In this document: piece after piece, positions 3,975-26,240 of the stretch
Position numbering within the stretch: position 1 is the stretch's first letter
Layout of the letters: each line of letters starts with the position of its first letter
Origin: Escherichia coli
GTDB taxonomy: Bacteria > Pseudomonadota > Gammaproteobacteria > Enterobacterales > Enterobacteriaceae
Strand: one strand, 5' to 3'
NCBI RefSeq assembly: GCF_044324875.1
Contig: NZ_CP172185.1
DNA length: 64,000 bases
Translations under genes and position numbers: made by a program
The notes under the pieces: generated by a model
The model's database searches: none
The model's input: only the letters and a program-made list of their open reading frames with translations
Told to the model about the DNA's origin: nothing

Positions 3975-4427
3975 ATGAACGTTATTGACAGCCGCATTCG
4001 TGATGTGAAATTTGGTGAAAATGTGAAAGTCGTCATGCCAGTAAACCTCTATGAATGTGAACTGGGGGATGATGTTTTTATCGGTCCCTTTGTGGAAATA
4101 CAGAAGGGATGCATCATTGGCAACCGGAGCCGAATTCAGTCCCACAGTTTCATCTGTGAGAACGTCATTTTAGGTGATGCCTGTTTCATCGGTCATGGCG
4201 TAACTTTTCCTAATGATCTGTTTAAGTGTGGTGGTCCCGATACCTCTGCAGAAAGCTGGATACGCATCGTATTAGGTAACACTGTAACAGTGGGTAGTGG
4301 AGCGACCATTTTAACAACAGAAATTTGCAGTGGAGCTGTGATTGGTGCTGGTAGTGTGGTTACAAAGCCCGTGCTGGTAAAAGGCGTGTATGCGGGTAAT
4401 CCGGCCAGACTTTTGAGAACGCTTTAA
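3975..4427 (+). CDS. hexapeptide-repeat (left-handed beta-helix) acyl/acetyltransferase
   Basis: 150-aa ORF with repeated [LIV]G-x-x-x-x hexapeptide pattern (IGNRSRIQSHSFI, IGHGVTF, VGSGATI, IGAGSVV). Confidence 0.6.
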   Translation: MNVIDSRIRDVKFGENVKVVMPVNLYECELGDDVFIGPFVEIQKGCIIGNRSRIQSHSFICENVILGDACFIGHGVTFPNDLFKCGGPDTSAESWIRIVLGNTVTVGSGATILTTEICSGAVIGAGSVVTKPVLVKGVYAGNPARLLRTL

Positions 4428-11508: not shown

Positions 11509-14354
11509 ATGAAAATCTGTCTTTACCATACCCTGAATCCTGAAACGATCCCGGGCTATAAAAAGTTTGCGCAGGCCATTGAGGCAGATAATTTCGCGCA
11601 GGCGGATGTGCGTAAAATTGATACTAATCTCTACCGGGCACGCCTCAGTATCCGGGATCGGTTGTTGTTTTCACTTTACCGTTACCGTGGTGAGACGGTC
11701 TGCCTGGTACTGGAATATCTGCGTAACCATGCTTACCACACGTCACGTTTTCTGCGCAGGAATGTGGTGATCGACGAGGCGCGGCTGCAGCTGCAACCGG
11801 TGCCGGATCCGGCAGATGCAGACGCCGGTACACTGACGTATCTCAACCCCACTCACGGGCGTTTTCACTACCTGGATAAAATGCTCTCTTTTGATGATGA
11901 CCAGCAGGCGCTGTATGAACATCCGATGCCACTGGTGATTGTCGGCTCCGCCGGCAGCGGAAAGACGGCACTGTTACTGGAGAAAATGAAGCAGGCCGGG
12001 GGCGATATTCTGTATCTCAGCCTTTCGTCATTTCTGGTGGAAAAAGCCCGCACACTCTATCACGCATCTGGTGAAGAACATGACGGGCAGACCATTGATT
12101 TTCTGTCGCTGAGCGAGTTTCTGGAAACCCTGCGCATTCCGGAAGGGCGGGAGGTGACGTTCAGTGCGTTCAGCAACTGGCTGCCCCGCAACCGGACCAC
12201 CGCTGCACTGGGCTCTGGCCATACCCTGTATGAGGAATTTCGTGGTGTCATTGGTGCCGTTGCTTCTGACAACGGACCGCTGTCCCGGGAGGCGTATCTG
12301 TCGCTGGGAGTACGTCAGTCACTTTATGATATGGATGACCGTCCGGCGGTTTACGCCCTGTTTGAGCGTTATGTTGCATGGCTGAAACAGTCGCGTCAGT
12401 ATGACAGTAATCTTCTCAGCCACCAGTACCTGCCACTGGCCGGGCACCGTTATGATGTGGTTTTTGTGGATGAAGTGCAGGATATGACGCCTGTGCAGCT
12501 GCGGCTGGTTCTGAAAACCCTGCGTCATCCCGGTCAGTTTGTACTCTGCGGCGATGCCAATCAGATAGTTCATCCCAGCTTTTTTCCTGGAGTGCCCTCA
12601 AAAGCCTCTTTTTCCGGCAGCAACAGAACGAGGCTGCCGTGAATATTCTGCAGGCGAATTACCGTAACGGGCACCATGTCACCGCACTGGCTAACCGGCT
12701 GCTCAGACTTAAACTGGCCCGGTTCAGTGCCATTGACCGGGAAAGTCACCATTTTGTCAGAAGCTGCGGGCAGACGGAAGGCACCATCAGGCTGCTGGAA
12801 GACCGGGAAGCCACCCGCCATGAGCTGAACAGCAAAACCTCCCGCTCAAACCGTGTGGCGGTGATTGTGATGCAGCCGGAGCAGAAAGCACAGGCCCGGC
12901 GCTGGTTCAGTACACCGCTGGTTTTTTCGGTTCAGGAAGTGAAGGGGCTCGAGTACGAAACGGTGATCCTGTACAACATGGTCAGCAGTACCCGTAAGGC
13001 ATTTGATGATATCTGCGAAGGGATCAATCCGGCAGATCCTGAGGGTGAGGTGCGTTATGCCCACCCCCGGGACCGGCAGGATCGTTCAGCAGAAATCTAC
13101 AGGTTTTTCACCAACGCGCTGTATGTTGCGCTCACCCGTGCCACGCACAACGTGTACCTTGTTGAGCAGGAGGTGGCCCATCCGCTGTGGTCCCTGCTGG
13201 CCCTCACGCATCATGAAACGCAACTGGAGCTGCAGGAAGAGATTTCCAGCCGTGATGAGTGGCAGAAAACCGCTCACCTGCTGGAAAAACAGGGGAAGCA
13301 GGAGCAGGTGGACACCATCCGCAGTATGATCCTGCAGGAGTCAGAAGTACCGTGGCAGATCTTCAGCGCAGAGGATGCGCGGCAGTGGAAACAGCAGATC
13401 CTCAGCGGGACGGCGGACAAAGCCACGAAACTGCAGGCGCTGGAATACAGCCTGATTTATTCCCTGTTTCCGCTGTATAATGCGCTGTACCGGGAAGATT
13501 TTAAGCCCACAAGGCAGCCCCGGACCCGGAGCCAGCAGTTACTGGAGCAGAAGTATTTTCGTCCCTACTCAGTGAATAATCCGGTCGCCGTGCTGAGGGA
13601 TATTGAACGTTATGGTGTTGATCACCGCTCGCCGTTTAATCTTACGCCGCTGATGCTGGCAGCCCGGGCGGGGAACACGGCGCTGGTTCAGTTGCTGCTG
13701 GATCGTGGTGCCGATCCCACGCTGACGGCAAATGACGGGCTGGCGGCGTATCATCATGTTCTGTCAGCGGCGGTCAGCACGCCCCGTTATGCGCAGCAGA
13801 AGGGGGCACAACTCTATGCCTTGCCGGGACCGGAAAGCCTGTCACTGCAGGTGGAAGGGCGGCTTGTCAAACTGGACAACCGGCAGATGGCAATGTTTCT
13901 GGTGATCCTGATGCAGGCATTGTTTTACACGCATCTGGGGAATGCTCTGGTTTTTTCAGAAGCCTTCAGTGCGGCACGACTGGCAGAGTGTGTCGCCCAC
14001 TTTCCTGAAGCCCTGCTGCCGGAACGCCGCAGGCGGAGGAATTATATCAGCAGCCAGCTTTCTCAGCATGAAGTTAACAGCAAGAACCCTTATGGAAAAA
14101 AGCTGTTTCTGCGACTGAGGCATGGTCAGTATATTCTTAATCCGGGGCTGAAAATCAGGCAGAATGACGGGTGGTACCCGGTTTACGACTTGCAGTCACC
14201 GGAAGATCTCGGTCATGATTTACAGACGTATCTGCAGGACATGCCCCCGTACATTCTGGAGATTCTGGGGGGCAGGAAGGATGTTTACGAACAAAGTAAG
14301 GGGTCTGTCGGATACTGGGTGGCGATGATCCGCCGTCACAGTGGTGAGCCGTAA
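11509..14354 (+). pseudogene. UvrD/Rep-like SF1 helicase with C-terminal ankyrin repeats, split by a frameshift in a T6 tract (12580-12585)
   Basis: Walker A GSAGSGKT, motif II VFVDEVQD, motif III CGDANQ in frame 1; downstream NYRNG, ALTRATH motifs and ankyrin repeat (LTPLMLAARAGNTALVQLLLDRGADP) in frame 3; adding one T restores one ORF of about 947 aa. Confidence 0.7.
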
Positions 14355-14422
14355 TGTTCCGCACTGCGCGGATATCCTGAAACATGTTCTGTTAATGTTA
14401 CCTGGTTCAGAAGAGATAAACA

Positions 14423-15412
14423 GTGAGCAGCAGGAAAGAGAAAAATACGCCCACGCCGCATGATGCCGCCTTCAGGGCGTTTATGGCCTCAGCAGAGGTG
14501 GCCCGTGATTTTGTTGAACTGCATCTTCCGGCGGAATACCGGCAGTTGTGTGATCTGTCGACGCTGCGGCTGGAGCCCTGTACCTTTGTGGACCAGGATC
14601 TGAAACAGTATGCGTGCGATGCGCTGTTCAGCATGAAGACCGTCAGCGGTGAGGAGGGGTATATTTATTGCCTCGCGGAACACCAGAGTACGGAAAACGC
14701 GTTTATGGCGTTCAGGATGCTCAGATATGCGGTGGCGGCGATGCAGCGTCACTTTGAACAGCACCATGAGCTGCCGCTGGTGATCCCGCTGTTATTCTAC
14801 CACGGTGAGCGGAGCCCGTACCCGTACAGCATGAACTGGCTGGAGTGTTTCAGAAATCCGGAACTTGCTGCTAAAATCTACACCAGACCGTTCCACCTGG
14901 TGGACGTGACGGTACTGGATGACGATGAGATAATGCAACACCGCCGAATGGGGGCACTGACGCTGCTGATGAAACACAGCCGCAGCCGCGACATCATGCT
15001 GCAGATGGACAGGCTGGTTCAGCTGATACAGACTTCACTGAATGAAGAGCTGGCGAAGGCTCTGTTCCACTATCTGCTGAACGGCAGTGAACATGTGACG
15101 GTAAGGTTTTTGCAGACGCTGGCGGAGCGGCTGCCACAGCATGAGGGCAACATAATGACACTGGCTGAACAACTGAAGCAGGAAGGGGAAGTCAAGGGAT
15201 TTGAGCGCGGTATTGCCCAGGGTATGGAGCGCGGTAAGCTAGAAGGCAGAATGGAAGGCAGAATGGAAGGCCGTGCCGAAGGGCGACTCGAAGGACAACT
15301 GGAAGGCAAACTGGAAACGGCGCGTAATATGTTGGCTGAAGGAATGGGGCTTCAGACCATCATGAAAATCACGGGATTGAGTGAAGAACAGCTGAAAAAA
15401 ATCAGCCACTGA
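14423..15412 (+). CDS. Rpn-family recombination-promoting nuclease / putative transposase (YhgA-like, PD-(D/E)xK)
   Basis: 329-aa ORF; N-terminal PHDAAFRAFMASAEVARDF pattern and C-terminal EG(R/K) low-complexity repeats typical of E. coli Rpn proteins. Confidence 0.7.
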   Translation: MSSRKEKNTPTPHDAAFRAFMASAEVARDFVELHLPAEYRQLCDLSTLRLEPCTFVDQDLKQYACDALFSMKTVSGEEGYIYCLAEHQSTENAFMAFRMLRYAVAAMQRHFEQHHELPLVIPLLFYHGERSPYPYSMNWLECFRNPELAAKIYTRPFHLVDVTVLDDDEIMQHRRMGALTLLMKHSRSRDIMLQMDRLVQLIQTSLNEELAKALFHYLLNGSEHVTVRFLQTLAERLPQHEGNIMTLAEQLKQEGEVKGFERGIAQGMERGKLEGRMEGRMEGRAEGRLEGQLEGKLETARNMLAEGMGLQTIMKITGLSEEQLKKISH

Positions 15413-15885
15413 AGCATTGAGGCGTGATGTATAGCACGCCTCGTTCTGTCTGACAGTATTTTGTTTCCTGTGTATTTGGTCGTTTCAGGTCAACCTTTGT
15501 CGGGAGCCTGGCGTTGGTACCTGCTGAGGAAAGAGGGAACTGGACGCAGAGTGACAGTCTGCGAATTGCAGGAAGAGGATGCGAAAGTGTTCGCTTCTTC
15601 CATTGTGTCCCTGATTTAAATTCGGATACTCAAATCTGAAGCGGTGACTCGTATACGTGTGAGTCACCGGGACTACCGCTTGAGTGATGAAAAATAGTCG
15701 TGTTAACGCAAAGCTGAAGTGACACATCTTATTTCAGCGAATGCGTTTGACCGCCTTACTATACACTTTTGAGCATTCTCTTTTCCTGACGGAAACCACG
15801 AAGACGACAATCTTCTCGTCTATAACCTGATATACAAGGCAAAAAACCGTCAAGAGCAGGAGCAGGCGGTCCGCCAGACAGTCCA

Positions 15886-16206
15886 TTGCATAAGGCTATC
15901 AGCTATATCCTGAAACGACCTGATGAGCTGTGCCGTTTTCTGGATGATGGCTCTGTGCCACCGGACAACAATATCTGCGAACGAGCCATCCGCCCGGTCA
16001 CGCTGGGGCGAAAGGCATGGTTATTCGCAGGCTCGCTGATGGCCGGCAAACGCGCGGCACAGATAATGAGTCTTCTGGAAACAGCAAAGCGTAATGGTCT
16101 GGAGCCACATGCCTGGCTGACGGACGTACTGACGCGCCTGCCGGAGTGGCCTGAGGACCGACTGGCTGAGCTGCTGCCTCTTGAGGGATTTACCTTCTCC
16201 GGGTGA
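15886..16206 (+). pseudogene. IS66-family transposase TnpC, C-terminal fragment
   Basis: 106 aa with DNNICERAIRPVTLGRKAWLFAGS, parallel to the C-terminus of the intact TnpC at 23005-24543; no N-terminal part or companion orfs. Confidence 0.75.
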
Positions 16207-16324
16207 CACAACACCTGCCGTCAGGTCTTTGCACACCGGGCCATGGCCTGCTGTCGGGCGTTGAGCGCCTGACAGCGGGTTATTGAGAAAGTCAGTCACC
16301 ATGCGCCTGGCTGACAGTCAGGAC

Positions 16325-16545
16325 CTGCACGTCAGCGCCTCCCTTACCCTGGTCAGGACTTCACTGCCTGCCACAAACTCCCGTGTCAGTACTTCGCGGC
16401 CTGACGCGCTCACCCTACTCAGTCCTTCAGAGCCCGCCTCCGGTACCTGGCAAGGCAGACGCCGGGGCGCAATAAAATAAATCAACCATCGCAGGGCGGC
16501 GATCATTCGCAACAACCGCTGATGACGAGCCCAGAAACGTGTCAA
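16325..16545. repeat. copy A of a ~220-bp diverged non-coding repeat (second copy at 22395-22625)
   Basis: about 75 percent identity to 22395-22625, shared core AATAAAATAAATCA-CCATCGCAGGGCG-CGATCATTCGCA and paired internal direct repeats CCCTGGTCAGGACTTCAC / CCGTGTCAGTACTTCGC. Confidence 0.6.
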
Positions 16546-16554
16546 GACGATTTC

Positions 16555-16689
16555 ACCGGAACCGTTTACCCCAAGCAGAGCGGCAATAGATCCGCCTGGT
16601 ACTGTGAAGGATGCATCGCGCAGTGCTTTCTGCCCGTTTCGCCAGGTGACAGTAACGCCATTAACGACAATACCCGCAGATTGCATCAT
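16555..16689 (-). pseudogene. sitB: sitB 5' fragment (ABC transporter ATPase, truncated inside the Walker A motif)
   Basis: first ~45 codons resemble SitB-type ATPase (SFTVPGGSIAALLGVNGSG) then diverge into repeat A; start overlaps sitA stop. Confidence 0.6.
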
Positions 16690-17603
16690 TACTTCTCCCT
16701 TTTCCCGGCTTTAATTCCCTGCACCAGCGTACTGGTAGTAACCTTCAGAAGGTCGATATACGTAGGTACCGGGCCGTTTTCTGTGCTCAGGGAATCGACA
16801 TAGAGCACACCGCCGTAGTGTGCGCCGGTTTCACGCGCAACCTGACGCGCTGGTTTATCGGAAACCGTACTCTCACTAAATACCGCTGGGATATTATTTT
16901 TCTTCACTATATCAACCACTTTACGTACCTGCTGGGGTGTTCCTTGTTGATCGGCATTTATCGGCCACAGATAAAGCTCTTTTAGCCCCAAATCGCGTGC
17001 GAGATAAGAAAAAGCCCCTTCACTGGTGACCATCCATCTTTTATTCTCAGGGAGTTCAGCAATCTGCTTACGCAGGGGGGCAAGGGTTTGGGTAATCTTG
17101 GCTTTATAAGTATCGGCATTACGTTGGTATGTTTTTGCATTTGCCGGATCGTATTTTATCAACGCATCGCGAATATTATCGACGTAAATCAAAGCATTAT
17201 CTGGCGACATCCAGGCATGAGGGTTAGGTTTTCCCTCGTAGGGGCCTTCGGTGATCCCTACTGGCGTCACACCCGAAGAGACAATCACTTCTGGAACACC
17301 ACTGAGATGCTGGTAAAAGCGCTGGAACCACAATTCCAGATTCATACCGTTGGCGAGAATCAGTTGTGCCCCCTGCGCACGTTTAATATCGCCAGGGGTA
17401 GGCTGATACTCATGAATTTCTGCACCGGGCCTGGTTATGGATGAGACTTCTGCAGCATCTCCAGCCACGTTTTTGGCCATATCTGCGATGATGGTAAATG
17501 TTGTAATGACCTTGAATTTTTCAGTTGCACTCGCCTGAAATGCTATCGAGCAGGTGAGGGCGAGGCACCCCAGGAGCATGGTTACTTTTTTTATTGAGTG
17601 CAT
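16689..17603 (-). CDS. sitA: SitA, periplasmic Mn/Fe-binding protein of the SitABCD ABC transporter
   Basis: 304-aa ORF with signal peptide; recognised as the SitA/cluster A-I metal-binding protein family. Confidence 0.8.
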   Translation of the reverse strand: MHSIKKVTMLLGCLALTCSIAFQASATEKFKVITTFTIIADMAKNVAGDAAEVSSITRPGAEIHEYQPTPGDIKRAQGAQLILANGMNLELWFQRFYQHLSGVPEVIVSSGVTPVGITEGPYEGKPNPHAWMSPDNALIYVDNIRDALIKYDPANAKTYQRNADTYKAKITQTLAPLRKQIAELPENKRWMVTSEGAFSYLARDLGLKELYLWPINADQQGTPQQVRKVVDIVKKNNIPAVFSESTVSDKPARQVARETGAHYGGVLYVDSLSTENGPVPTYIDLLKVTTSTLVQGIKAGKREK

Positions 17604-17635
17604 AATTCAGTACCTATAGTGAGTAAAATTAGAAC

Positions 17636-17657
17636 AAACATAGCAACGGCTATGTTT
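17636..17657 (-). promoter_or_regulatory. MntR operator (palindrome AAACATAGC-AACG-GCTATGTTT) in the sitA promoter
   Basis: perfect inverted repeat matching the E. coli MntR box, 33 bp upstream of the sitA start. Confidence 0.7.
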
Positions 17658-17682
17658 TATAGCATAAGCTATACACAATGCA

Positions 17683-17697
17683 AATGATTATCATTAG
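17683..17697 (-). promoter_or_regulatory. Fur box-like site (AATGATTATCATTAG) in the sitA promoter
   Basis: 13 of 15 match to the core of the Fur consensus GATAATGATAATCATTATC. Confidence 0.55.
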
Positions 17698-18237
17698 TAA
17701 TTCAGACCCCAACACAGGCATTAGGTTGTTTCCTGCTGGCGATGTGGTATTGAGGAAAAGCGTAGGACAGATATCAGGCTTTGAAAGTAAGTGTTAAGTT
17801 AAGCGAACGCCGTATTGACGCTTATTTATTGGTGAGTACTACGTTCCATGGCAGGAGTTCGTCATATAGACGATTATCTCAGTAAACATATTTATCCCTC
17901 CTGATAATTGTCTTTAATGATATGTTTTTATTCTTTTTGAAATAACTCACAAAATGATAATCAGGTCTACACAGAAATGTGATACACATCTTGTTTTTTA
18001 AAGAAGAAAAATGACATTGCTCACATATTTATCTGGGTTTATATAAATAATGTAATTATTGTGAAAAGTAACTATTTGATTTTTAAGTATATATTCGCAA
18101 ATCAAATTAGTTAATATTTCAGAGAAATTAGAAGATCTTCACATTTATAAAATCAGAATGTGATTTTTATCTCGGTTTATTACTTGATGATAAAGTATTA
18201 AAGGTTTTAAATATTATGTTTGTATAGGAGTACAATT

Positions 18238-18696
18238 TTGGATATCTATTTTGACGACAGTTTGCTATCCCTGAATCAGAATTTTACATCTCCAGAAGAT
18301 GGTATTCGTTATGCAGGTGAATTATTGCAGAAATCAGGAGCCTGTACATCTGATTATATTGAAGAAATGATCCACACATATCACGAATTTGGCCCAGTTA
18401 TTGTTCTGGATAATGGTGTGGCGATGCCTCATGCTCGACCAGAAAAGGGAGGATTAAAAAGTGCTTTCTCTGTGGTAGTAACAGAATTTCCAGTGATATT
18501 TCATCATCAGGAGTTTGATCCGGTGAATGTCATTATTGCCATCTGTGCCATAGACTCAGATACACATATTCATCTTATTCAGATTGTAGCTGATTTAATT
18601 GAAAGAAATATTGCGTCTTATGTGAGAAATAGTAGCAAAGAGCAGGTCTTATATTTTATCCAGAAATCAATAGAGAGGACGTTATGCTTAAAATAA
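18238..18696 (+). CDS. PTS EIIA component, ascorbate/mannitol-type (PTS_EIIA_2)
   Basis: active-site region GVAMPHARPEKG; start uncertain (TTG 18220 or TTG 18238 after RBS TAGGAG). Confidence 0.65.
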   Translation: MDIYFDDSLLSLNQNFTSPEDGIRYAGELLQKSGACTSDYIEEMIHTYHEFGPVIVLDNGVAMPHARPEKGGLKSAFSVVVTEFPVIFHHQEFDPVNVIIAICAIDSDTHIHLIQIVADLIERNIASYVRNSSKEQVLYFIQKSIERTLCLK

Positions 18697-18965
18697 GAAC
18701 TGTATGCGGCAATGGGATTGGTAGTTCATTAATGGCAGCGAATAATGTTAAAAAAATTTGTGAGGAAATGGGCATAAAAGCAGATGTAGCCTCGGTCGAT
18801 TTTGCTAACGCAGTTGGGGAAAATGCTGATCTGTATATCACTGTTAAAGAGTTTGCCTCACAATTTCCATCTCAGTATAGAGTCGCTGTGATCCGTAGTT
18901 ATGTACATAAGGTGAAAATTGAAGAGGATGTTAAAGATACTTTACAGAAACTGAGTCAATTCTGA
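18684..18965 (+). CDS. PTS EIIB component (UlaB/SgaB-like)
   Basis: 93-aa ORF with N-terminal CGNGIGSS phospho-cysteine motif. Confidence 0.7.
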   Translation: MLKIRTVCGNGIGSSLMAANNVKKICEEMGIKADVASVDFANAVGENADLYITVKEFASQFPSQYRVAVIRSYVHKVKIEEDVKDTLQKLSQF

Positions 18966-18985
18966 TATTTTACAGGGGGTATATT

Positions 18986-20380
18986 ATGACATCAATTCTT
19001 TTAACTCTTACAGAAATCTTCAGTCAACCAGCCTTCCTTATGGGGATTATTTCTTTGGCTGGATTACTGTCATTACGTTCGCCACTTAATAAATTACTAA
19101 CTGGTACACTGAAACCAATCCTCGGTTATTTAATGTTGAGTGCAGGTGCCGGTGTGATTGTTTCAAATTTAAATCCTCTGGGTGGTATTATCGAAGCTGG
19201 ATTTAATATAAGAGGCGTTATACCTAATAATGAAGCGATCGTATCAGTAGCTCAGAAATTACTTGGTGTGGAAACCATGAGCATTTTATTGCTCGGATTT
19301 ATTTTTAATCTTGTCATTGCACGATTTACTAAATATAAGTACATATTTTTAACAGGACATCATTCATTCTTTTTAGCGTGCTTATTTTCTGCGGTATTAC
19401 AGGCTGCGCATTTTAGTAACGGGGAATTGGTCATTATAGGCGGTTTCCTGCTGGGAGCATGGTCTGCGATTTCTCCAGCAATCGGGCAACGTTATACCAG
19501 ACGAGTGACTGAGGATGGAGGGATTGCCATGGGACACTTTGGCTCCTTGGGTTATTATCTGTCAGCCTGGATTGCAGCGAAAGTTGGTAAAGCAGACACA
19601 TCATTTGCTGATACTGAAATTTCTGAAAAATGGGGCTTCCTGCGTGATACCACAGTGACTACCGGTATTGTAATGGTTGTTATTTATCTGGTATGCAGTA
19701 TTGTTGCTGGTTCCGCATATATCAGTACAATTACCGAGCAGAATCTGGTGACCTTCTCCATCCTGTCCGGTCTACAGTTTGCGGTAGGAGTTGCTATTGT
19801 CTACAGTGGTGTGCGTTTAATCCTAGGCGATCTTGTCCCCGCATTTCAGGGGATTAGCCAGAAACTGATACCGAACTCAATTCCGGCTGTTGACTGTGCG
19901 GTATTCTTCACTTTCAGTCCTACTGCAGTGGTGATTGGCTTTATCTGTTCTTTTTTAGGTGGCCTTGTTGGTATGTTGATACTGGGGGGGGTTGGTATGG
20001 CGCTGATTATCCCTGGCATGGTTCCGCACTTCTTCTGTGGTGGTACCTCTGGTGTATTTGCAGATAAGCTTGGAGGTAAAAAAGGTTGTATTATTGCGTC
20101 GTTTATTGGCGGTATTTTCCTCGCTTTTTTACCCGCAATGTTGTTACCTGCACTGGGAAATCTCGGTTTTGAAAACAGTACCTTTGCAGACTTTGACTTC
20201 GCTGTATGGGGGATTGTTATCGGTGAGGCCTTTACTCACTTCGGACAAATTGCTGTTTATATTATTTGTGCTGTTATGAGCCTGGTATTACTGATCCCGT
20301 TTGCTTTTAAATCCATAAAAGTTGTAGGAAATACAATGAGCTATGAAGAGTTAACGAAAAAAGATTATGCTGACAAGTAA
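18986..20380 (+). CDS. PTS EIIC permease (UlaA/SgaT family)
   Basis: 464-aa polytopic membrane protein directly after EIIB; RBS AGGGGG. Confidence 0.7.
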   Translation: MTSILLTLTEIFSQPAFLMGIISLAGLLSLRSPLNKLLTGTLKPILGYLMLSAGAGVIVSNLNPLGGIIEAGFNIRGVIPNNEAIVSVAQKLLGVETMSILLLGFIFNLVIARFTKYKYIFLTGHHSFFLACLFSAVLQAAHFSNGELVIIGGFLLGAWSAISPAIGQRYTRRVTEDGGIAMGHFGSLGYYLSAWIAAKVGKADTSFADTEISEKWGFLRDTTVTTGIVMVVIYLVCSIVAGSAYISTITEQNLVTFSILSGLQFAVGVAIVYSGVRLILGDLVPAFQGISQKLIPNSIPAVDCAVFFTFSPTAVVIGFICSFLGGLVGMLILGGVGMALIIPGMVPHFFCGGTSGVFADKLGGKKGCIIASFIGGIFLAFLPAMLLPALGNLGFENSTFADFDFAVWGIVIGEAFTHFGQIAVYIICAVMSLVLLIPFAFKSIKVVGNTMSYEELTKKDYADK

Positions 20381-20414
20381 ACACAATATTAGTGTAAAGT
20401 ATTAAGGAGTTGTT

Positions 20415-21386
20415 ATGGCTATAATTACTATAGGACTATCCTGTTTTGACCAGTTTTTTTATATAAACAGATGGCCAAAAGAGAATACTAAAAACTTTTC
20501 CTGTGATTTTATTGAAAGTGGTGGCGGCCCCTGTGCCAATGCAGCATGGTTGCTGGGTTTATGGGGCGAGTGTGTGTACTTCTCAGGCCATCTACAAAAC
20601 GATATCTATGGACAGAAAATTATAGATGAGTTTCATGATGTTGGAGTAAATACAGATTATGTGATTTTCAATAATCAAATGCTTACACCGCTGGCATCTA
20701 TACTAGTGAATCAATTAAATGGTTCAAGAACGATTATAACACGCAAACAGAATTATCCCCCACGAATGACATTTGAAGAAAAGCTGAAAATAGATGAATT
20801 GATTACACATCTGACATATGATGATAAAAAGGAAGTTATTACAATATTAATTGACGGCCATGAACCTGAGTTGAGTGAATATATTATACAGCGAATGCCA
20901 GATGCCCGAGTCGTGATGGACGCAGGCTCTCTTCGGGAGAGTAATTTAAATCTGGCTAAATACACAGACTATCTGGTTGCCAGTGAAAACTTTGCCTGTG
21001 AACTATCTGGAATTGAAAAATTTACATCTGATATACAGTTAAACGAAGCTTTAACAGAACTTAATAAATTGTCCCGAGGTCAGCCCTTTATTACTCTTGG
21101 TGAGAGAGGATGTGCATATCTGAAGAATGGAATACCTACAATATCACCAGCTTTTATTTGTAATGCAATCGATACAACAGGTGCCGGTGATGTTTTTCAT
21201 GGTGCTTTTACGTATGGTGTTCATTACAACTGGCATATTGATAATATTATTTTGTTTGCCAGTCTGGCTGCAGCTATTTCTGTTGAAAAAAAAGGTGTCC
21301 GCGAATCCATACCTGATTTAGCTGATGTCCATAATGCTATAAATCAATATGAAAGAAGTAGAGAAAAATACTTTACTTCATTTTAA
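20415..21386 (+). CDS. PfkB-family carbohydrate kinase
   Basis: 323-aa ORF with DTTGAGDVFHGAF motif. Confidence 0.7.
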   Translation: MAIITIGLSCFDQFFYINRWPKENTKNFSCDFIESGGGPCANAAWLLGLWGECVYFSGHLQNDIYGQKIIDEFHDVGVNTDYVIFNNQMLTPLASILVNQLNGSRTIITRKQNYPPRMTFEEKLKIDELITHLTYDDKKEVITILIDGHEPELSEYIIQRMPDARVVMDAGSLRESNLNLAKYTDYLVASENFACELSGIEKFTSDIQLNEALTELNKLSRGQPFITLGERGCAYLKNGIPTISPAFICNAIDTTGAGDVFHGAFTYGVHYNWHIDNIILFASLAAAISVEKKGVRESIPDLADVHNAINQYERSREKYFTSF

Positions 21387-21409
21387 GTTATACACAAGCA
21401 AGAGGAAAT

Positions 21410-22276
21410 ATGATGTTAGTTTCTATAGAGAATATGCTTAATCGTGCCCTTGTACATCAGTACGCAGTTGGTCAGTTTAATATCAATAACCTGGAGTGGA
21501 CAGGTACTGTGTTAAATGTTGCACAAAAATTACGTTCTCCGGTTATTTTAGGCGTCTCCGGTGGCACTATAAAACATATGCTTGGGCTGAAATGTATTCA
21601 CGATATTGTTGTTAACGCAATGGAATTCCTGGAAATAGATGTGCCGGTGGCTTTACATCTTGATCACGGTCAGTCTTATGAGGCTTGTGAGGCGGCAATT
21701 AAAGCAGGTTTCAGCTCAGTAATGTTTGACGGTTCACATATGCCTTTTGCCGAAAATCTGGCAATAACAAAACGTCTGGTGAAGTATGCCCATCGTCGGG
21801 GAGTATCTGTGGAAGCAGAGCTAGGCACGATTGCAGGAAGTGAAGATGGCATTGTTAATTCCCGAGTGATTTATGCAGATCCTACAGAATGTAAGCAACT
21901 TGTTGAGGAGACAGGAGTGGATTGTCTGGCTGCAGCACTTGGTTCCACACATGGATTATATAAAGGAAAAGCAAAACTCGGTTTTGCGGAAATGGAACAT
22001 ATATCACAGTTGGTAAAAGTACCCCTGGTACTTCATGGGGGCACAGGTATTTCAGATACGGATATGAAAAAAGCTATTTCACTTGGCACAGCAAAAATCA
22101 ATGTTAATACCGAAAATATGTATGCGTGGTGTTTGTCAGTGAAAGAACAGTTTGAACATAAGGGGGAACATGATATTAATGATCCCCGAAAAGTTATTAC
22201 GAAAGGATTGCAGCCAGTTGCAGAACGAGTGGCAGAACGAATGAGCCTGTTCGGCTCTGTTGGACAGTCCCTCTGA
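21410..22276 (+). CDS. class II ketose-bisphosphate aldolase (GatY/KbaY/Fba family)
   Basis: 288-aa ORF with N-terminal QYAVGQFNINNLE and metal-ligand region LHLDHG. Confidence 0.7.
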   Translation: MMLVSIENMLNRALVHQYAVGQFNINNLEWTGTVLNVAQKLRSPVILGVSGGTIKHMLGLKCIHDIVVNAMEFLEIDVPVALHLDHGQSYEACEAAIKAGFSSVMFDGSHMPFAENLAITKRLVKYAHRRGVSVEAELGTIAGSEDGIVNSRVIYADPTECKQLVEETGVDCLAAALGSTHGLYKGKAKLGFAEMEHISQLVKVPLVLHGGTGISDTDMKKAISLGTAKINVNTENMYAWCLSVKEQFEHKGEHDINDPRKVITKGLQPVAERVAERMSLFGSVGQSL

Positions 22277-22394
22277 ACTGTTACAGTTTCCTGCAGGTCG
22301 TCATTCATTCAGGCAATCTGCAGGATTGAACTATATTAGACATCCAGGAATAATTCCCTTCCACAGGGGGCACGGAGGATTGAAATTGCACTGA

Positions 22395-22625
22395 ATGGGG
22401 AATTTGTTAACGTCGCCCTTACCATGGTCAGGATTTCACGCCCTGTTACAAACACTCGTGTCAGTATTTCTTGGCCCTATTCAGTACTCCTCACTACCTG
22501 CCAACGACACCGCTAGGAAAAACGCCCGCGTGTAATAAAATAAATCAGCCATCGCAGGGCGCCGATCATTCGCATGCATCGCTGATGACGCGCCCAAACA
22601 AGCGTCAAGATGAGTTAACCTGAAC
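22395..22625. repeat. copy B of the ~220-bp diverged repeat
   Basis: aligned by eye to 16325-16545; lies between the convergent aldolase gene and the lsrK remnant. Confidence 0.6.
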
Positions 22626-22631
22626 AATTCG

Positions 22632-22968
22632 TTATAAGCCCGGTGCCTTCCACAAAGAAGTTGTCAACCCGTGATCGACCAAGCTCAACTGTTCCTGATA
22701 TACAGCCCGCCATTTTTCGAGCAATTCCTGATAAAGCTCATGTTTTCTTTTGTCCGGAACATGCTACCTTTCCCAGCTCACCAGGCATTCTCCCGTTTCG
22801 TCCATAGATGAGTAGATACCTGCCCCTACACCAGCAGCAATCGCACAGCCCAGTGCCGTTGCCTCTTTGACTACAGGAACATTAACTGGTAGCCCTGACA
22901 CATCAGCCAGAATCTGGCTCCAGAGTTCTCCTTTTGCACCACCTCCCGCAAATACCAGAGATGAAGGG
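22632..22968 (-). pseudogene. lsrK: lsrK (autoinducer-2 kinase, FGGY family) 3' end, distal piece, separated from the rest by the IS66 insertion
   Basis: reverse-strand translation ...[47 protein letters not shown]...[13 protein letters not shown]. Confidence 0.65.
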
Positions 22969-23004
22969 TAAGCGTACAGCGAGGGCCGTATTGACGGGGA
23001 TGTG

Positions 23005-24543
23005 TTATTCAGCTGGCAGTGCTATGCGCCACGGAAGCAGTTCGCTGACCCGGTTGACCGGCCAGTCTGCTATGACGCCAAGCACATGGCGAAGGTAGCT
23101 TTCTGGATCCACGTCATTCAGTTTGCACGTCCCTATCAGGCTGTACAGTAGCGCTCCCCGCTCACCACCATGGCCAGAGCCGAAGAACAGGAAGTTTTTA
23201 CGACCCAGACTTACCGCCCGCAGGGCATTTTCAGCGATGTTGTTGTCGATTTCCACCCAGCCATCGTTCGCATAGTACGTCAGTGCCGGCCACTGGTTAA
23301 GTGCGTACGCGAACGCCTTCGCCAACTCTGAGTGTCGCGACAGGGTCTTCATCTTTTCACGCAACCAGCTTTCCAGGGATTTCAACAGCGGTTTCGTTTT
23401 TCGCTGACGTTCAGCAAGCCGCTGCTCTGCCGGCATTCCCCTTATATCCGCCTCTATGGCGTACAACTGACCGATCTGCTCCAGGGCTTCTTCCGTCAGT
23501 GCTGACGGGATGCGGACGTGCACATCGTGGATCTTTCGGCGGGCATGAGCCCAGCAGGCAGCTTCCGTTATCCCACCATTGCGATACAGCTCGTTGAACC
23601 CGGCGTACGCATCCGCTTGCAGCACACCGCTGAAGCAAGCAAGATGAGTCTGCGGATGGATGCCTTTTCTGTCCGGGCTGTAAGCGAACCACACTGCAGG
23701 TGCCAACGCTGACCCGGCATTGCGGTCATCACGAACATACGCCCACAACCGCCCGGTCTTCGTCTTCTTATTACCCGGCATCAGTACCTGGACCGGGGTA
23801 TCATCGGCATGGAGTTTGCCGTCAGTCATGACATAGCCATGAAGCGCCTCTTCCAGCGGAGACAGCAGCCGGCAGCATGCATCCACCCAGCCCGACAGCA
23901 GTGAACGGCTCAGCTCCACACCTTGCCGGCCGTATATTTCTGACTGGCGATACAGCGGGGTGTGCTCTGCATACTTCGAGGTCAGCACGCGGGCCAGCAG
24001 CCCCGGTCCGGCGATACCCCGCTCGATGGGCCGCGAAGGTGCAGGTGCCTGCACGATGGCATCGCACTGAGTACAGGCATGTTTTTCCCGTACCGTCCGG
24101 ATAACCCGGAAGGCGCTACGCATCAACTCCAGCTGTTCGGCGGTATCCTCGCCCAGATAGCTCAGTGAACCGCCGCAGTTCGGGCAGCACGGCGCCGCAG
24201 GCAACAGTCGCTTTTCGTCACGGGGTAGTGATTCAGGGAACGGCTTACGGATGCGGGTCTGACGCAACGGACGCTGTACTGCCGGGTCATACACCCTACC
24301 AGTCAGCGTATCGCTCTCTTTCTGAAGCCGGTTCAGATCGGCTTCCATTTGTGCGATACGGCGGGAGACTTTTTCGGAACGACTGCCGAAGTTCATCCGG
24401 CGGAGTTTATCCAGCTGCGCCTGCAGATGGTCTATTTCGCGCTCCCGGTTGCTCAGCTTTTCCTGCAGGGCGTGGATCAGCGCTTCCTGTTCGGCCAGGC
24501 GCTGTTTCAGCAGGAAGATGTCGTCAGAAGAGATGTCGTTCAT
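23005..24543 (-). CDS. IS66-family transposase TnpC
   Basis: 512-aa ORF with zinc-finger-like CCPNCGG and C-terminal [12 protein letters not shown] segment. Confidence 0.85.
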
Positions 24544-24592
24544 AAGCCCGTATTTTACCGGGCTTATTCTGTGACAACCAGGATAAAGAGAT

Positions 24593-24940
24593 TTACAGCA
24601 TGGTCAGGGAGGTCAGCAGCCGCTTAGGCTGTCGCCAGTCGATACCTTCCAGCAGCATCGCCAGCTGCGCCTGTGTAAGGAACACTTTGCCATCACGGGC
24701 TGACGGCCAGGCGAAGCGCCCACGCTCCAGCCGTTTGGTCAGGAGGCACAGTCCGTCACCGGTGGACCACAGCAGTTTAACCTGACTGCCGCTGCGGCCC
24801 CGGAAAATGAAAACATGGCCGGACATGGGATCGTCTTTCAGCGCCGTCTGTACTTTCGCAGCCAGGCCGTTGAAGCCATTTCTCATATCGGTGATACCGG
24901 CAACCAGCCAAATTTTGGTCCCGGAAGGTAAAGGGATCAT
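24593..24940 (-). CDS. IS66 Orf2 (TnpB)
   Basis: 115-aa [33 protein letters not shown]... typical IS66 Orf2. Confidence 0.85.
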
Positions 24941-25338
24941 CGCTTCAGTTCCTGTATCAGCAGAGTCAGGAGCTTTTCGCTGACATTGCCATTGAAGCGG
25001 AGCGTCCCGTGCCGGAACGTTACCTCACAGCTGATACTGAGGGTTTCCGGGTCCTCTGCGAGCGATTCTGGCTGTTCGGCAGCTGCATCGAGAGTCACAG
25101 GAAGTAGCTGGGGGCTCTCTGAAGAAGGTAATAGCAGCTTTCCCTCGCGCCATTGTTGTCGCCATTTGAACAACAGATTGGCGTTAATGCCATTTTCAAG
25201 AGCAAGTTTTGAGATGGATATCCCGGGTTCACAGGAGGCAGCAACGAGCTGCTGTTTAAATTCGGGAGGATAATTAGGGCAGCCTTTTCGCCTGCCGGGA
25301 GTCACATTTTTCTGCATATCTGACACTTTGGTTCCCAC
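24937..25338 (-). CDS. IS66 Orf1 (TnpA)
   Basis: 133-aa ORF overlapping Orf2 start by 4 bp. Confidence 0.8.
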   Translation of the reverse strand: MGTKVSDMQKNVTPGRRKGCPNYPPEFKQQLVAASCEPGISISKLALENGINANLLFKWRQQWREGKLLLPSSESPQLLPVTLDAAAEQPESLAEDPETLSISCEVTFRHGTLRFNGNVSEKLLTLLIQELKR

Positions 25339-25409
25339 TACTTATTTGGTGGACACCACTTTGTCTAATTCGTCAGATTCTGACCAGACGGTTCAGGCTG
25401 TACGCTTAC

Positions 25410-25821: not shown

Positions 25822-26240
25822 GTAAGCGGCTCGCCAGAACCGTATTGATATTTACTGAGAGGTCAGATCAACTTTCCAGGGCAACAGATCGCGTACCCGG
25901 TTTGCCGGCCAGTCCTGGATATGCTCAATAACGTAACGCAGCCATTTTTCTGGCTCCACATTGTTCAGACGGCATGTGCCGATCAGTGAGTACAACACCG
26001 CCGCATGTTCGCCACCGCTGTCGGAACCCGCGAAGAGCCAGTTTTTCCGGCCTACGGCCACTCCCCGTAAGGCGTTCTCTGCGATGTTGTTGTCGATTTC
26101 CGCCTGACCATTATGCAGTACACGTTCAGCGCATCCCACTGTTTCGGCAGGCATGCGAACGCTTTTACTGTATCCGGGTGACGCGACAGTGTTTTCATCT
26201 GTTGCTGTATCCAGTCATACTACGCCAGCATCATTGGTAG
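25822..26240 (-). mobile_element. IS66-family remnant: terminal repeat plus frameshifted tnpC 3' fragment
   Basis: GTAAGCGGCTCGCC terminus at 25822; ORF 25852-26154 with [23 protein letters not shown]; upstream homology continues in another frame. Confidence 0.65.

Follow-up and report, generated by a model that had tools for sequence, protein, structure and literature searches.

Two direct non-coding repeats in a mosaic Escherichia coli island as probable right-end remnants of long-tailed IS66-family elements

Two related non-coding repeats

In a 64-kb stretch of Escherichia coli DNA, hereafter the window, two similar non-coding sequences lie in the same orientation at the two edges of a ~6-kb segment carrying sitA and PTS-kinase-aldolase genes, raising the question of what these repeats are and whether they act on the DNA that they bracket. 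The original prediction left two answers side by side: a functional element (recombination site, operator cluster or small RNA/peptide locus), or what is left of a recombination event by which the segment was assembled. Copy A (16325-16545) and copy B (22395-22625) are indeed same-orientation homologues, ~73-81% identical: the mean column identity is 81% in a MAFFT alignment, and a BLAST comparison of copy B with L005, which has the same sequence as copy A, yields 72.9% (225 columns, gaps counted; E = 6e-32), in agreement with the ~75% likeness first proposed. The predicted ~42-bp conserved core was likewise recovered, as 41 nt with 2 mismatches, reading AATAAAATAAATCA[A/G]CCATCGCAGGGCG[G/C]CGATCATTCGCA; the longest exact run shared by the two copies is 14 nt. 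The internal features of the repeats are as follows.

16469-16509 (copy A) and ~22530-22570 (copy B), plus strand: conserved core of ~41 nt, from the family alignment
16353-16428, plus strand: three TCAGNMCTTC motifs of copy A, starting at 16353, 16386 and 16419, corresponding to the "internal direct repeats"

The motifs of copy A are spaced by exactly 33 bp, with a single further match in the 64-kb window, and copy B displays degenerate versions at 22428, 22461 and 22481. Internal direct repeats therefore exist, but three short ones are counted per copy instead of the two announced; Tandem Repeats Finder reported no tandem array in this DNA. On the minus strand, the core of copy A contains a 5-bp hairpin and a T-run (16503-16488), scored as a terminator-like site.

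A long tail behind an IS66-family transposase gene

The origin of the repeats became apparent by comparison with an intact element, defined from three plasmids with unrelated flanks (reference copy, L006 1906-4678). This element is 2,773 bp long and comprises tnpA-tnpB-tnpC followed by a 361-bp non-coding tail, with ends GTAATGTTCCGG... and ...CCGGAATATTAC. Its terminal inverted repeats begin with GTAA (left, GTAATGTTCCGGGGAACTCAT; right, as reverse complement, GTAATATTCCGGCGAACTCAT), and three independent insertions are flanked by perfect 8-bp target duplications (gttttctg, tcatcagc and tcttcagg). The reference TnpC matches NF033517 with 438.6 bits (cutoff 180, E = 2e-131), identifying an IS66-type DDE transposase, and the accessory genes tnpA and tnpB, located upstream of tnpC with ORFs overlapping at 2311-2324, encode proteins that match NF047593 (45.1 bits, cutoff 28) and NF033819 (113.6 bits, cutoff 50), respectively. 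A homologous tail is found directly 3' of IS66 tnpC in O157, in K-12 and in plasmids, and the TCAGNMCTTC positions are kept in the family alignment, the motif being missing from the remainder of the reference element. The nearest intact elements found are ~78% identical to the A and B sequence types, and the search returned no intact element of either type. PGAP puts no specific IS name on this long-tailed subgroup.

The family to which both copies belong is dispersed over thousands of E. coli genomes, which disposes of the possibility that copy B is simply native sequence and copy A unique to this locus. In at least six further contexts the tail survives as a solo relic, whose extent differs from case to case. 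A common left limit of the E. coli matches just after the tnpC stop was considered and discarded, since it only reflected the start of the query, and mapping against the whole IS gave varied truncation points. Outside E. coli, a first core pattern had 0 matches in a collection of genomes from 100,044 species, and a second had 3 in the same collection (Phenylobacterium, Akkermansia and Balneolales), in unrelated phyla, for ~4 expected by chance.

Most of the tail has diverged about as fast as synonymous sites: the tail of copy A is 70.4% identical to the reference, and the fourfold sites of the adjoining tnpC are 67.3% identical. Above-neutral conservation is restricted to the ~41-nt core, the best-kept part of the tail (0.93-0.94 across 10 family members), and to the terminal ~30 nt, which explains why independently decayed relics resemble each other at precisely these places. 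Over its last 111 tail positions, copy B is 75% identical to the reference and 80% to copy A. Taken together, these data make it very probable that the repeats derive from two related (~75% identical) members of the long-tailed IS66 subgroup, of which they are inactive right-end remnants. The element is of a known kind, and such leftover IS right ends are commonplace scars of mobile elements, here in an E. coli island of mosaic structure.

The two relics and their junctions

The region contains the following features.

15852-16562, plus strand: relic A of a long-tailed IS66-family IS, with the 3' part of tnpC, the tail and most of the right inverted repeat
16556-16562, strand not assigned: crossover between relic A and sitB, a 7-nt identity (CCGGAAC) within a 13/15 extended microhomology
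16548-16689, minus strand: truncated sitB, N-terminal ~48 codons, to the Walker A motif; the match to intact sitB starts at 16548
17808-17865, minus strand: relic of an IS66 end, IS682/ISEc23-like, where the sitA and PTS halves meet, with sequence GTTAAGCGAACGCCGTATTGACGCTTATTT, compared with the IS682 inverted repeat
22395-22630, plus strand: relic B, solo right end of a related long-tailed IS66-family element (positions ~2535-2770), in the fba-lsrK spacer
22632-22968, minus strand: lsrK 3' remnant, 112 codons with one internal stop, cut at 22968 by an intact IS66 element
22969-25409, minus strand: intact short-tailed, ISEc23-like IS66-family element interrupting lsrK and flanked by a perfect 8-bp duplication, GATGAAGG

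The homologous element at copy A is thus larger than the repeat first noted and takes in a tnpC fragment. Relic A is collinear with positions 2057-2767 of the reference element (78% identity, E = 8e-157), and its ORF 15886-16206 corresponds to the last 106 codons of tnpC, matching positions 304-387 of the 387 of the NCBIfam IS66 transposase profile (E = 1.5e-33); PGAP labels DNA identical to relic A "IS66 family transposase, incomplete". As predicted, copy A abuts the truncated sitB, of which residues 1-50 match positions 1-50 of the 274 of the SitB-type profile NF011630, and which continues in frame into the antisense strand of the IS tail to form a chimeric ORF of 123 aa (16318-16689). Relic A stops 5 nt short of the IS tip, the terminal ATGAC being absent. 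The same IS variant carries a complete tip beside a different flank in L009 and L010, so that a three-way alignment of intact sitB, the window and this variant fixes both the IS end and the crossover into sitB. Copy A therefore does not end in a canonical transposition junction: the tip is incomplete, the junction lies in sitB microhomology and the left part of the element is absent. The incomplete tip marks a secondary rearrangement and is not counter-evidence to an IS origin.

Relic B contains no tnpC, and its tip is degenerate (...GAACAATTC). The relic can be aligned with copy A and with the reference tail and right inverted repeat, through ...GCGTCAAGATGAGTTAACCTGAACAATTC, and is 81% identical to the ML35 relic. 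Its end, at ~22630, lies 1 nt from the lsrK stop codon (complement 22632-22634), where homology to K-12 lsrK stops exactly, confirming that copy B adjoins the 3' end of the lsrK remnant. The copy B sequence occurs at one locus only, and all contigs examined that encode this LsrK (lsr/PTS locus) carry the same scar; no fuller IS emerged downstream of lsrK, the contigs with this exact LsrK all having the truncated scar. To the left of ~22395 no tnpC homology was detected, and positions 22277-22394 have no homologue beyond this locus. Since copy B adjoins no transposase remnant and its tip (...AATTC) is unlike the ...TTAC of the family, its origin by transposition is deduced from homology and not from a target duplication, neither remnant nor duplication having been found at its edges.

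IS66 elements and relics are dense in this region, with three further IS66 pieces near the two repeats. The ISEc23-like element has only 36 bp after tnpC and hence is not the source of the repeats. The end relic at 17808-17865 is annotated by PGAP in L005 as a "transposase domain-containing protein" fragment, and E. coli matches break at 17864 and 17928, near the sitA/PTS seam.

A history of these scars can be proposed. In an intact element, TnpC acts on two terminal inverted repeats beginning with GTAAT, insertion generating an 8-bp target duplication, and the long-tailed subgroup has ~360 bp of non-coding DNA between tnpC and the right inverted repeat. Copy A is such a tail, still joined to the last 106 codons of tnpC after loss of the remaining element, its tip having later been fused to sitB by an illegitimate crossover at the 7-nt microhomology. 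Copy B would be an older solo tail, from an element that landed directly after the lsrK stop codon and later lost its left part, and the relic now marks where the lsr operon meets the PTS-kinase-aldolase module.

Alternative readings and known relatives

The direct orientation of the copies, which border accessory genes at a distance of ~6.1 kb in a region rich in IS66 elements and relics, might suggest that they terminate a composite or unit mobile element, or act as paired recombination sites, so that the 6-kb segment moves or is excised as a block. We regard this as barely conceivable. Neither the whole segment nor the joint between its sitA and PTS halves was found in any of the complete E. 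coli genomes (0/5,426), and each half is found without the other, and in a setting of its own, in further E. coli genomes, in disagreement with the idea of a single 6-kb unit. In strain AR_0085, the two copies are ~165 kb apart. Because both copies are right ends in direct orientation, they cannot be the two ends of one transposon; neither has a left end or a transposase, copy A is short by its 5 terminal nucleotides, and no target duplications flank the segment, for which neither usable outer ends nor movement as a unit was observed. Moreover, the 14-nt longest exact identity between A and B is below what efficient RecA recombination needs.

The marked conservation of the ~41-nt core relative to its surroundings, with the hairpin and T-run on the minus strand of copy A, could instead point to a cis-regulatory element or small-RNA gene that the host uses and has therefore kept at the two loci, but such a role appears very improbable. 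Rfam 15 covariance models gave no relevant match at E <= 1 in 15800-23000, and the fold energies of both strands are indistinguishable from those of shuffled sequences (z -1.6 to +0.3), on which grounds the small RNA was dropped. Neither repeat contains a sigma-70-like promoter, the adjoining genes (sitB and lsrK) are truncated pseudogenes here, and the repeat family travels with IS66 tnpC, not with any host gene. It is equally hard to sustain that the tail encodes a small minus-strand protein, antisense to tnpC, of which the repeats would be two decayed gene copies. The minus strand of the O157 copy is open for >140 codons, PGAP annotates a 47-aa hypothetical protein in the tail in several records, and a 33-nt spacing would mean 11-residue repeats. 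Nevertheless, variability is equal at the three codon phases (0.184, 0.168 and 0.184), with no sign of codon periodicity, the antisense ORF matches no NCBIfam family, the tail diverges at the synonymous rate, and the long frame is frameshifted in the intact, duplication-flanked reference L006 as well as in A, B, L015, L016 and L018. The phase-neutral variability, the frameshifts in intact copies and the missing family together led us to reject this protein. Of the two answers initially offered, the assembly relics come close to the truth, in that the repeats lie at mosaic seams, and the functional element found no support, be it as promoter, small RNA or peptide locus. We conclude that the repeats serve the intervening genes neither for regulation nor for recombination; both relics are incapable of transposition and have no joint action on the DNA that separates them.

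If the repeats are IS right ends, the conserved core and terminal ~30 nt presumably serve the element itself, as a binding region for the transposase or a host factor, and possibly as an inward-facing terminator; these roles are proposed from a 4-5-bp hairpin and local conservation only. A bolder and rather unlikely extension is that the whole ~360-bp tail is a cis-acting module and not a mere spacer, combining the core hairpin and T-run, facing inward, with the three 33-bp-phased TCAGNMCTTC motifs. Such a candidate module could insulate the element from transcription entering through the flank, or provide phased subterminal sites for TnpC, TnpA, TnpB or a host factor and, if real, could help to explain the persistence of solo right-end tails at many island junctions (CDI, sucrose, lsr/PTS and KpLE2).

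The importance of these observations lies mainly in annotation. The repeats are best described there as end relics of the IS66 family, and the 123-aa ORF at 16318-16689, which is no gene, as a sitB::IS chimera. The relics and the three nearby IS66 pieces reveal a patchwork produced by repeated IS66-family insertions and later deletions, and warn us not to regard sitA and the PTS operon together as one unit, be it functional or mobile. More generally, though of minor interest, the tail of one IS66 subgroup is long and for the most part neutral, with conservation in a small core.

With the IS66 family, exemplified by the tnpA-tnpB-tnpC elements IS679, IS682, ISEc8 and ISEc23 (named as in the literature and in PGAP annotations), the intact relatives of the repeats share three ORFs matching TnpA, TnpB and TnpC profiles, terminal inverted repeats starting with GTAA, 8-bp target duplications and residence in E. 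coli/Shigella plasmids and islands. They differ in the 361-bp tail after tnpC, compared with 36 bp in the ISEc23-like element of the window. MITE-like IS derivatives are similarly short, non-coding, dispersed and derived from IS ends, but neither copy has a matching left inverted repeat, the boundaries of the relics are not shared and copy B is found at a single locus; the missing left inverted repeat and the unshared boundaries led us to reject a MITE. Also related are the solo IS-end relics, such as the IS66-type fragment of K-12 KpLE2 and that of the O157 tellurite-resistance island, which belong to the same tail family and lie, with varied truncation, at the junctions of accessory modules. 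By contrast with these, the window holds two relics of differing sequence types 6 kb apart, one of which was joined to sitB by microhomology and not by transposition.

Origin of the repeats in a long-tailed IS66 element

Copies A (16325-16545) and B (22395-22625), two non-coding repeats of about 220 bp, are inactive remnants of the right ends of insertion sequences of the IS66 family. The original prediction correctly saw two homologous non-coding stretches in the same orientation, as MAFFT (81% mean column identity) and BLAST (E = 6e-32; 72.9% over 225 columns, gaps counted) alignments confirm, and their core of ~41 nt differs at two positions between copies (AATAAAATAAATCA[A/G]CCATCGCAGGGCG[G/C]CGATCATTCGCA). 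The predicted internal direct repeats exist, though they are short: copy A carries three TCAGNMCTTC motifs (16353, 16386 and 16419, spaced by exactly 33 bp), copy B three degenerate counterparts, and the motif is matched only once elsewhere in the 64-kb window. Tandem Repeats Finder detected no tandem array in the repeats.

The intact element consists of tnpA-tnpB-tnpC plus a tail, and was found on three plasmids with unrelated flanks, in one case between traX and traI. Pairwise BLAST showed that the plasmids have 2,773 bp in common and nothing beyond, and perfect 8-bp duplications (gttttctg, tcatcagc and tcttcagg) flank the three copies. In the copy taken as reference (L006 1906-4678), inverted repeats form the two ends (GTAATGTTCCGGGGAACTCAT... 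and ...ATGAGTTCGCCGGAATATTAC), and all three proteins score above the NCBIfam cutoffs for IS66 TnpA, TnpB and TnpC. Its tnpC stop lies at element position 2412, and the last 361 bp are therefore a non-coding tail internal to the IS. Right after this stop, a 17-nt inverted repeat (L006 4324-4340 / 4373-4389, 94% complementary) could form an mRNA 3' hairpin; the matching repeat in copy A's element (16213-16225 / 16268-16280) is weaker (13 nt, 85%).

Many plasmids, as well as K-12 KpLE2 and the O157 tellurite island, have homologues of the tail that start a few bases past an IS66-family tnpC stop. Among 5,426 complete E. coli genomes, 2,683 match the copy A tail, most of these matches having 60-80% identity, and 1,005 match copy B. 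Solo tails adjoin CDI immunity genes (L015, L016), sucrose operons (L017, L018) and a toxin-antitoxin relic (L014), and one is found in K-12 (L003). On the left, they reach IS positions 2364, 2365, 2561, 2393, 2664 and 2171. Two further arrangements were observed at the element's ends. In E. coli O157:H7 NE1127 (L001 6205-6505), the last 151 bp of the IS (2623-2773) are in tandem duplicate, giving two right inverted repeats in succession, as also in O111 strains (two-piece matches). In an O157-type ter island (L002 ~990-1090), the left inverted repeat is immediately preceded, just beyond the left end of the IS, by four ~22-bp direct repeats (pattern GATCAnnGTTTGGCATC).

IS66-family relics in the region and their junctions

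The region holds at least five IS66-family pieces.

IS66-family pieces in the region
15852-16562 (+): relic A, holding copy A
~17808-17865: IS682/ISEc23-like IS66-type end relic, on the seam where the sitA half meets the PTS half
22395-22630 (+): relic B, holding copy B
22969-25409 (-): intact ISEc23-like IS66 element, inverted repeats GTAAGCGTACAG... and ...CTGTACGCTTAC
25852-26154 (-): 100-aa ORF, IS66 TnpC C-terminal fragment, truncating the upstream part of lsrK

In relic A, the ORF directly 5' of copy A (15886-16206) matches the IS66 transposase profile over the profile's final 84 positions (E = 1.5e-33), and over 15852-16561 the relic follows element positions 2057-2767 collinearly, with 78% identity. 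Copy A abuts sitB, which lies on the opposite strand and is present for its first ~48 codons. The same sequence type, 97-99% identical, occurs in strains LR-31 and AR_0085, where it runs to the complete tip (...CACCGGAACATGAC) and then into a flank unlike that of the window; in relic A, sitB sequence replaces the final 5 nt of the tip. Intact sitB reads CGATTTTCCGGAAC, then CGTTTAC, and the same IS variant (L010) reads CGATTTCACCGGAAC, then ATGAC. Since the window reads as the IS variant and then continues as sitB, the crossover lies in the common CCGGAAC at 16556-16562. The joint is a secondary microhomology-type junction, not a transposition junction. A chimeric 123-aa ORF (16318-16689, minus strand), in which SitB residues 1 to ~48 are in-frame with the antisense IS tail, could be mistaken for a gene by an automatic annotator.

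Copy B is located between the aldolase gene (end 22276) and the lsrK 3' end, and its alignment to the tail begins near position 2535 and runs through the tip (...GCGTCAAGATGAGTTAACCTGAACAATTC), ending at 22630; alignment to the reference element revealed no tnpC homology to its left. The complement of the lsrK stop codon lies at 22632-22634, with 1 nt between the stop and the start of the IS tip. Homology between the island lsrK and K-12 lsrK (74.7% nt, 84% aa) stops exactly at the stop codon. Because the layout lsrK, 355-bp spacer, fba-kinase-PTS is the same in every examined contig with this exact LsrK, copy B is a fixed scar at the lsrK/PTS seam. This LsrK sequence is listed in 774 assembly-index blocks, and the PTS-kinase-aldolase-linked lsr operon is a diverged allele (L004, L020-L024 versus L025). 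Compared with the intact gene of strain EF5-18-41, the lsrK 3' remnant (22632-22967, minus strand) has an internal stop (…SWER*HVPDK…). The ISEc23-like element, with a perfect 8-bp duplication (GATGAAGG) at its borders, splits lsrK, which resumes from 25410 to ~25726, and the TnpC fragment beyond it shows no long-tail homology.

Functional readings of the repeats

The copies had been noted to bracket a ~6-kb segment, but this segment is not a unit. Its two halves match different sets of E. coli genomes, one set covering 14000-17864 (Rpn, IS66 fragment, sitB', sitA) and another 17928-22967 (PTS, kinase, fba, lsrK), and none of the 5,426 complete E. coli genomes covers their joint. In AR_0085, the two repeat types lie ~165 kb apart. 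The 63 nt directly past the seam relic (17865-17927) have no match in complete E. coli genomes. The reading as a functional element or small RNA found no support: the repeats match no Rfam family, copies A and B and the reference fold no better than shuffled sequences on either strand (z from -1.6 to +0.3), and neither copy contains a promoter-like site. A peptide locus might be suggested by a long antisense frame in the O157 copy, but frameshifts interrupt this frame in the relics and in the intact reference element, it matches no protein family, and variability in the tail is equal across the codon phases (0.184, 0.168 and 0.184), which argues against an antisense protein-coding tail.

Copy A and the reference are 70.4% identical over the tail, against 67.3% at fourfold sites of the adjacent tnpC fragment, so the tail as a whole evolves at an approximately neutral rate; in that fragment, identity is 91.5% at first, 95.3% at second and 65.1% at third positions. 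Only the core (0.93-0.94) and the terminal ~40 nt are conserved above the rest of the tail. On the minus strand, the core comprises a 4-5-bp hairpin followed by GGTTGATTTATTTT, and the copy A hairpin scored as a terminator-like site, suggesting that the core may block read-in transcription, or may bind transposase or a host factor. We conclude that copies A and B neither define, regulate nor mobilise the genes between them, contrary to the functional-element alternative of the original prediction.

IS66 right-end relics are an already known kind of element, and the long-tailed form differs from the intact ISEc23-like element of the window in having 361 bp after tnpC, whereas the latter has 36 bp.
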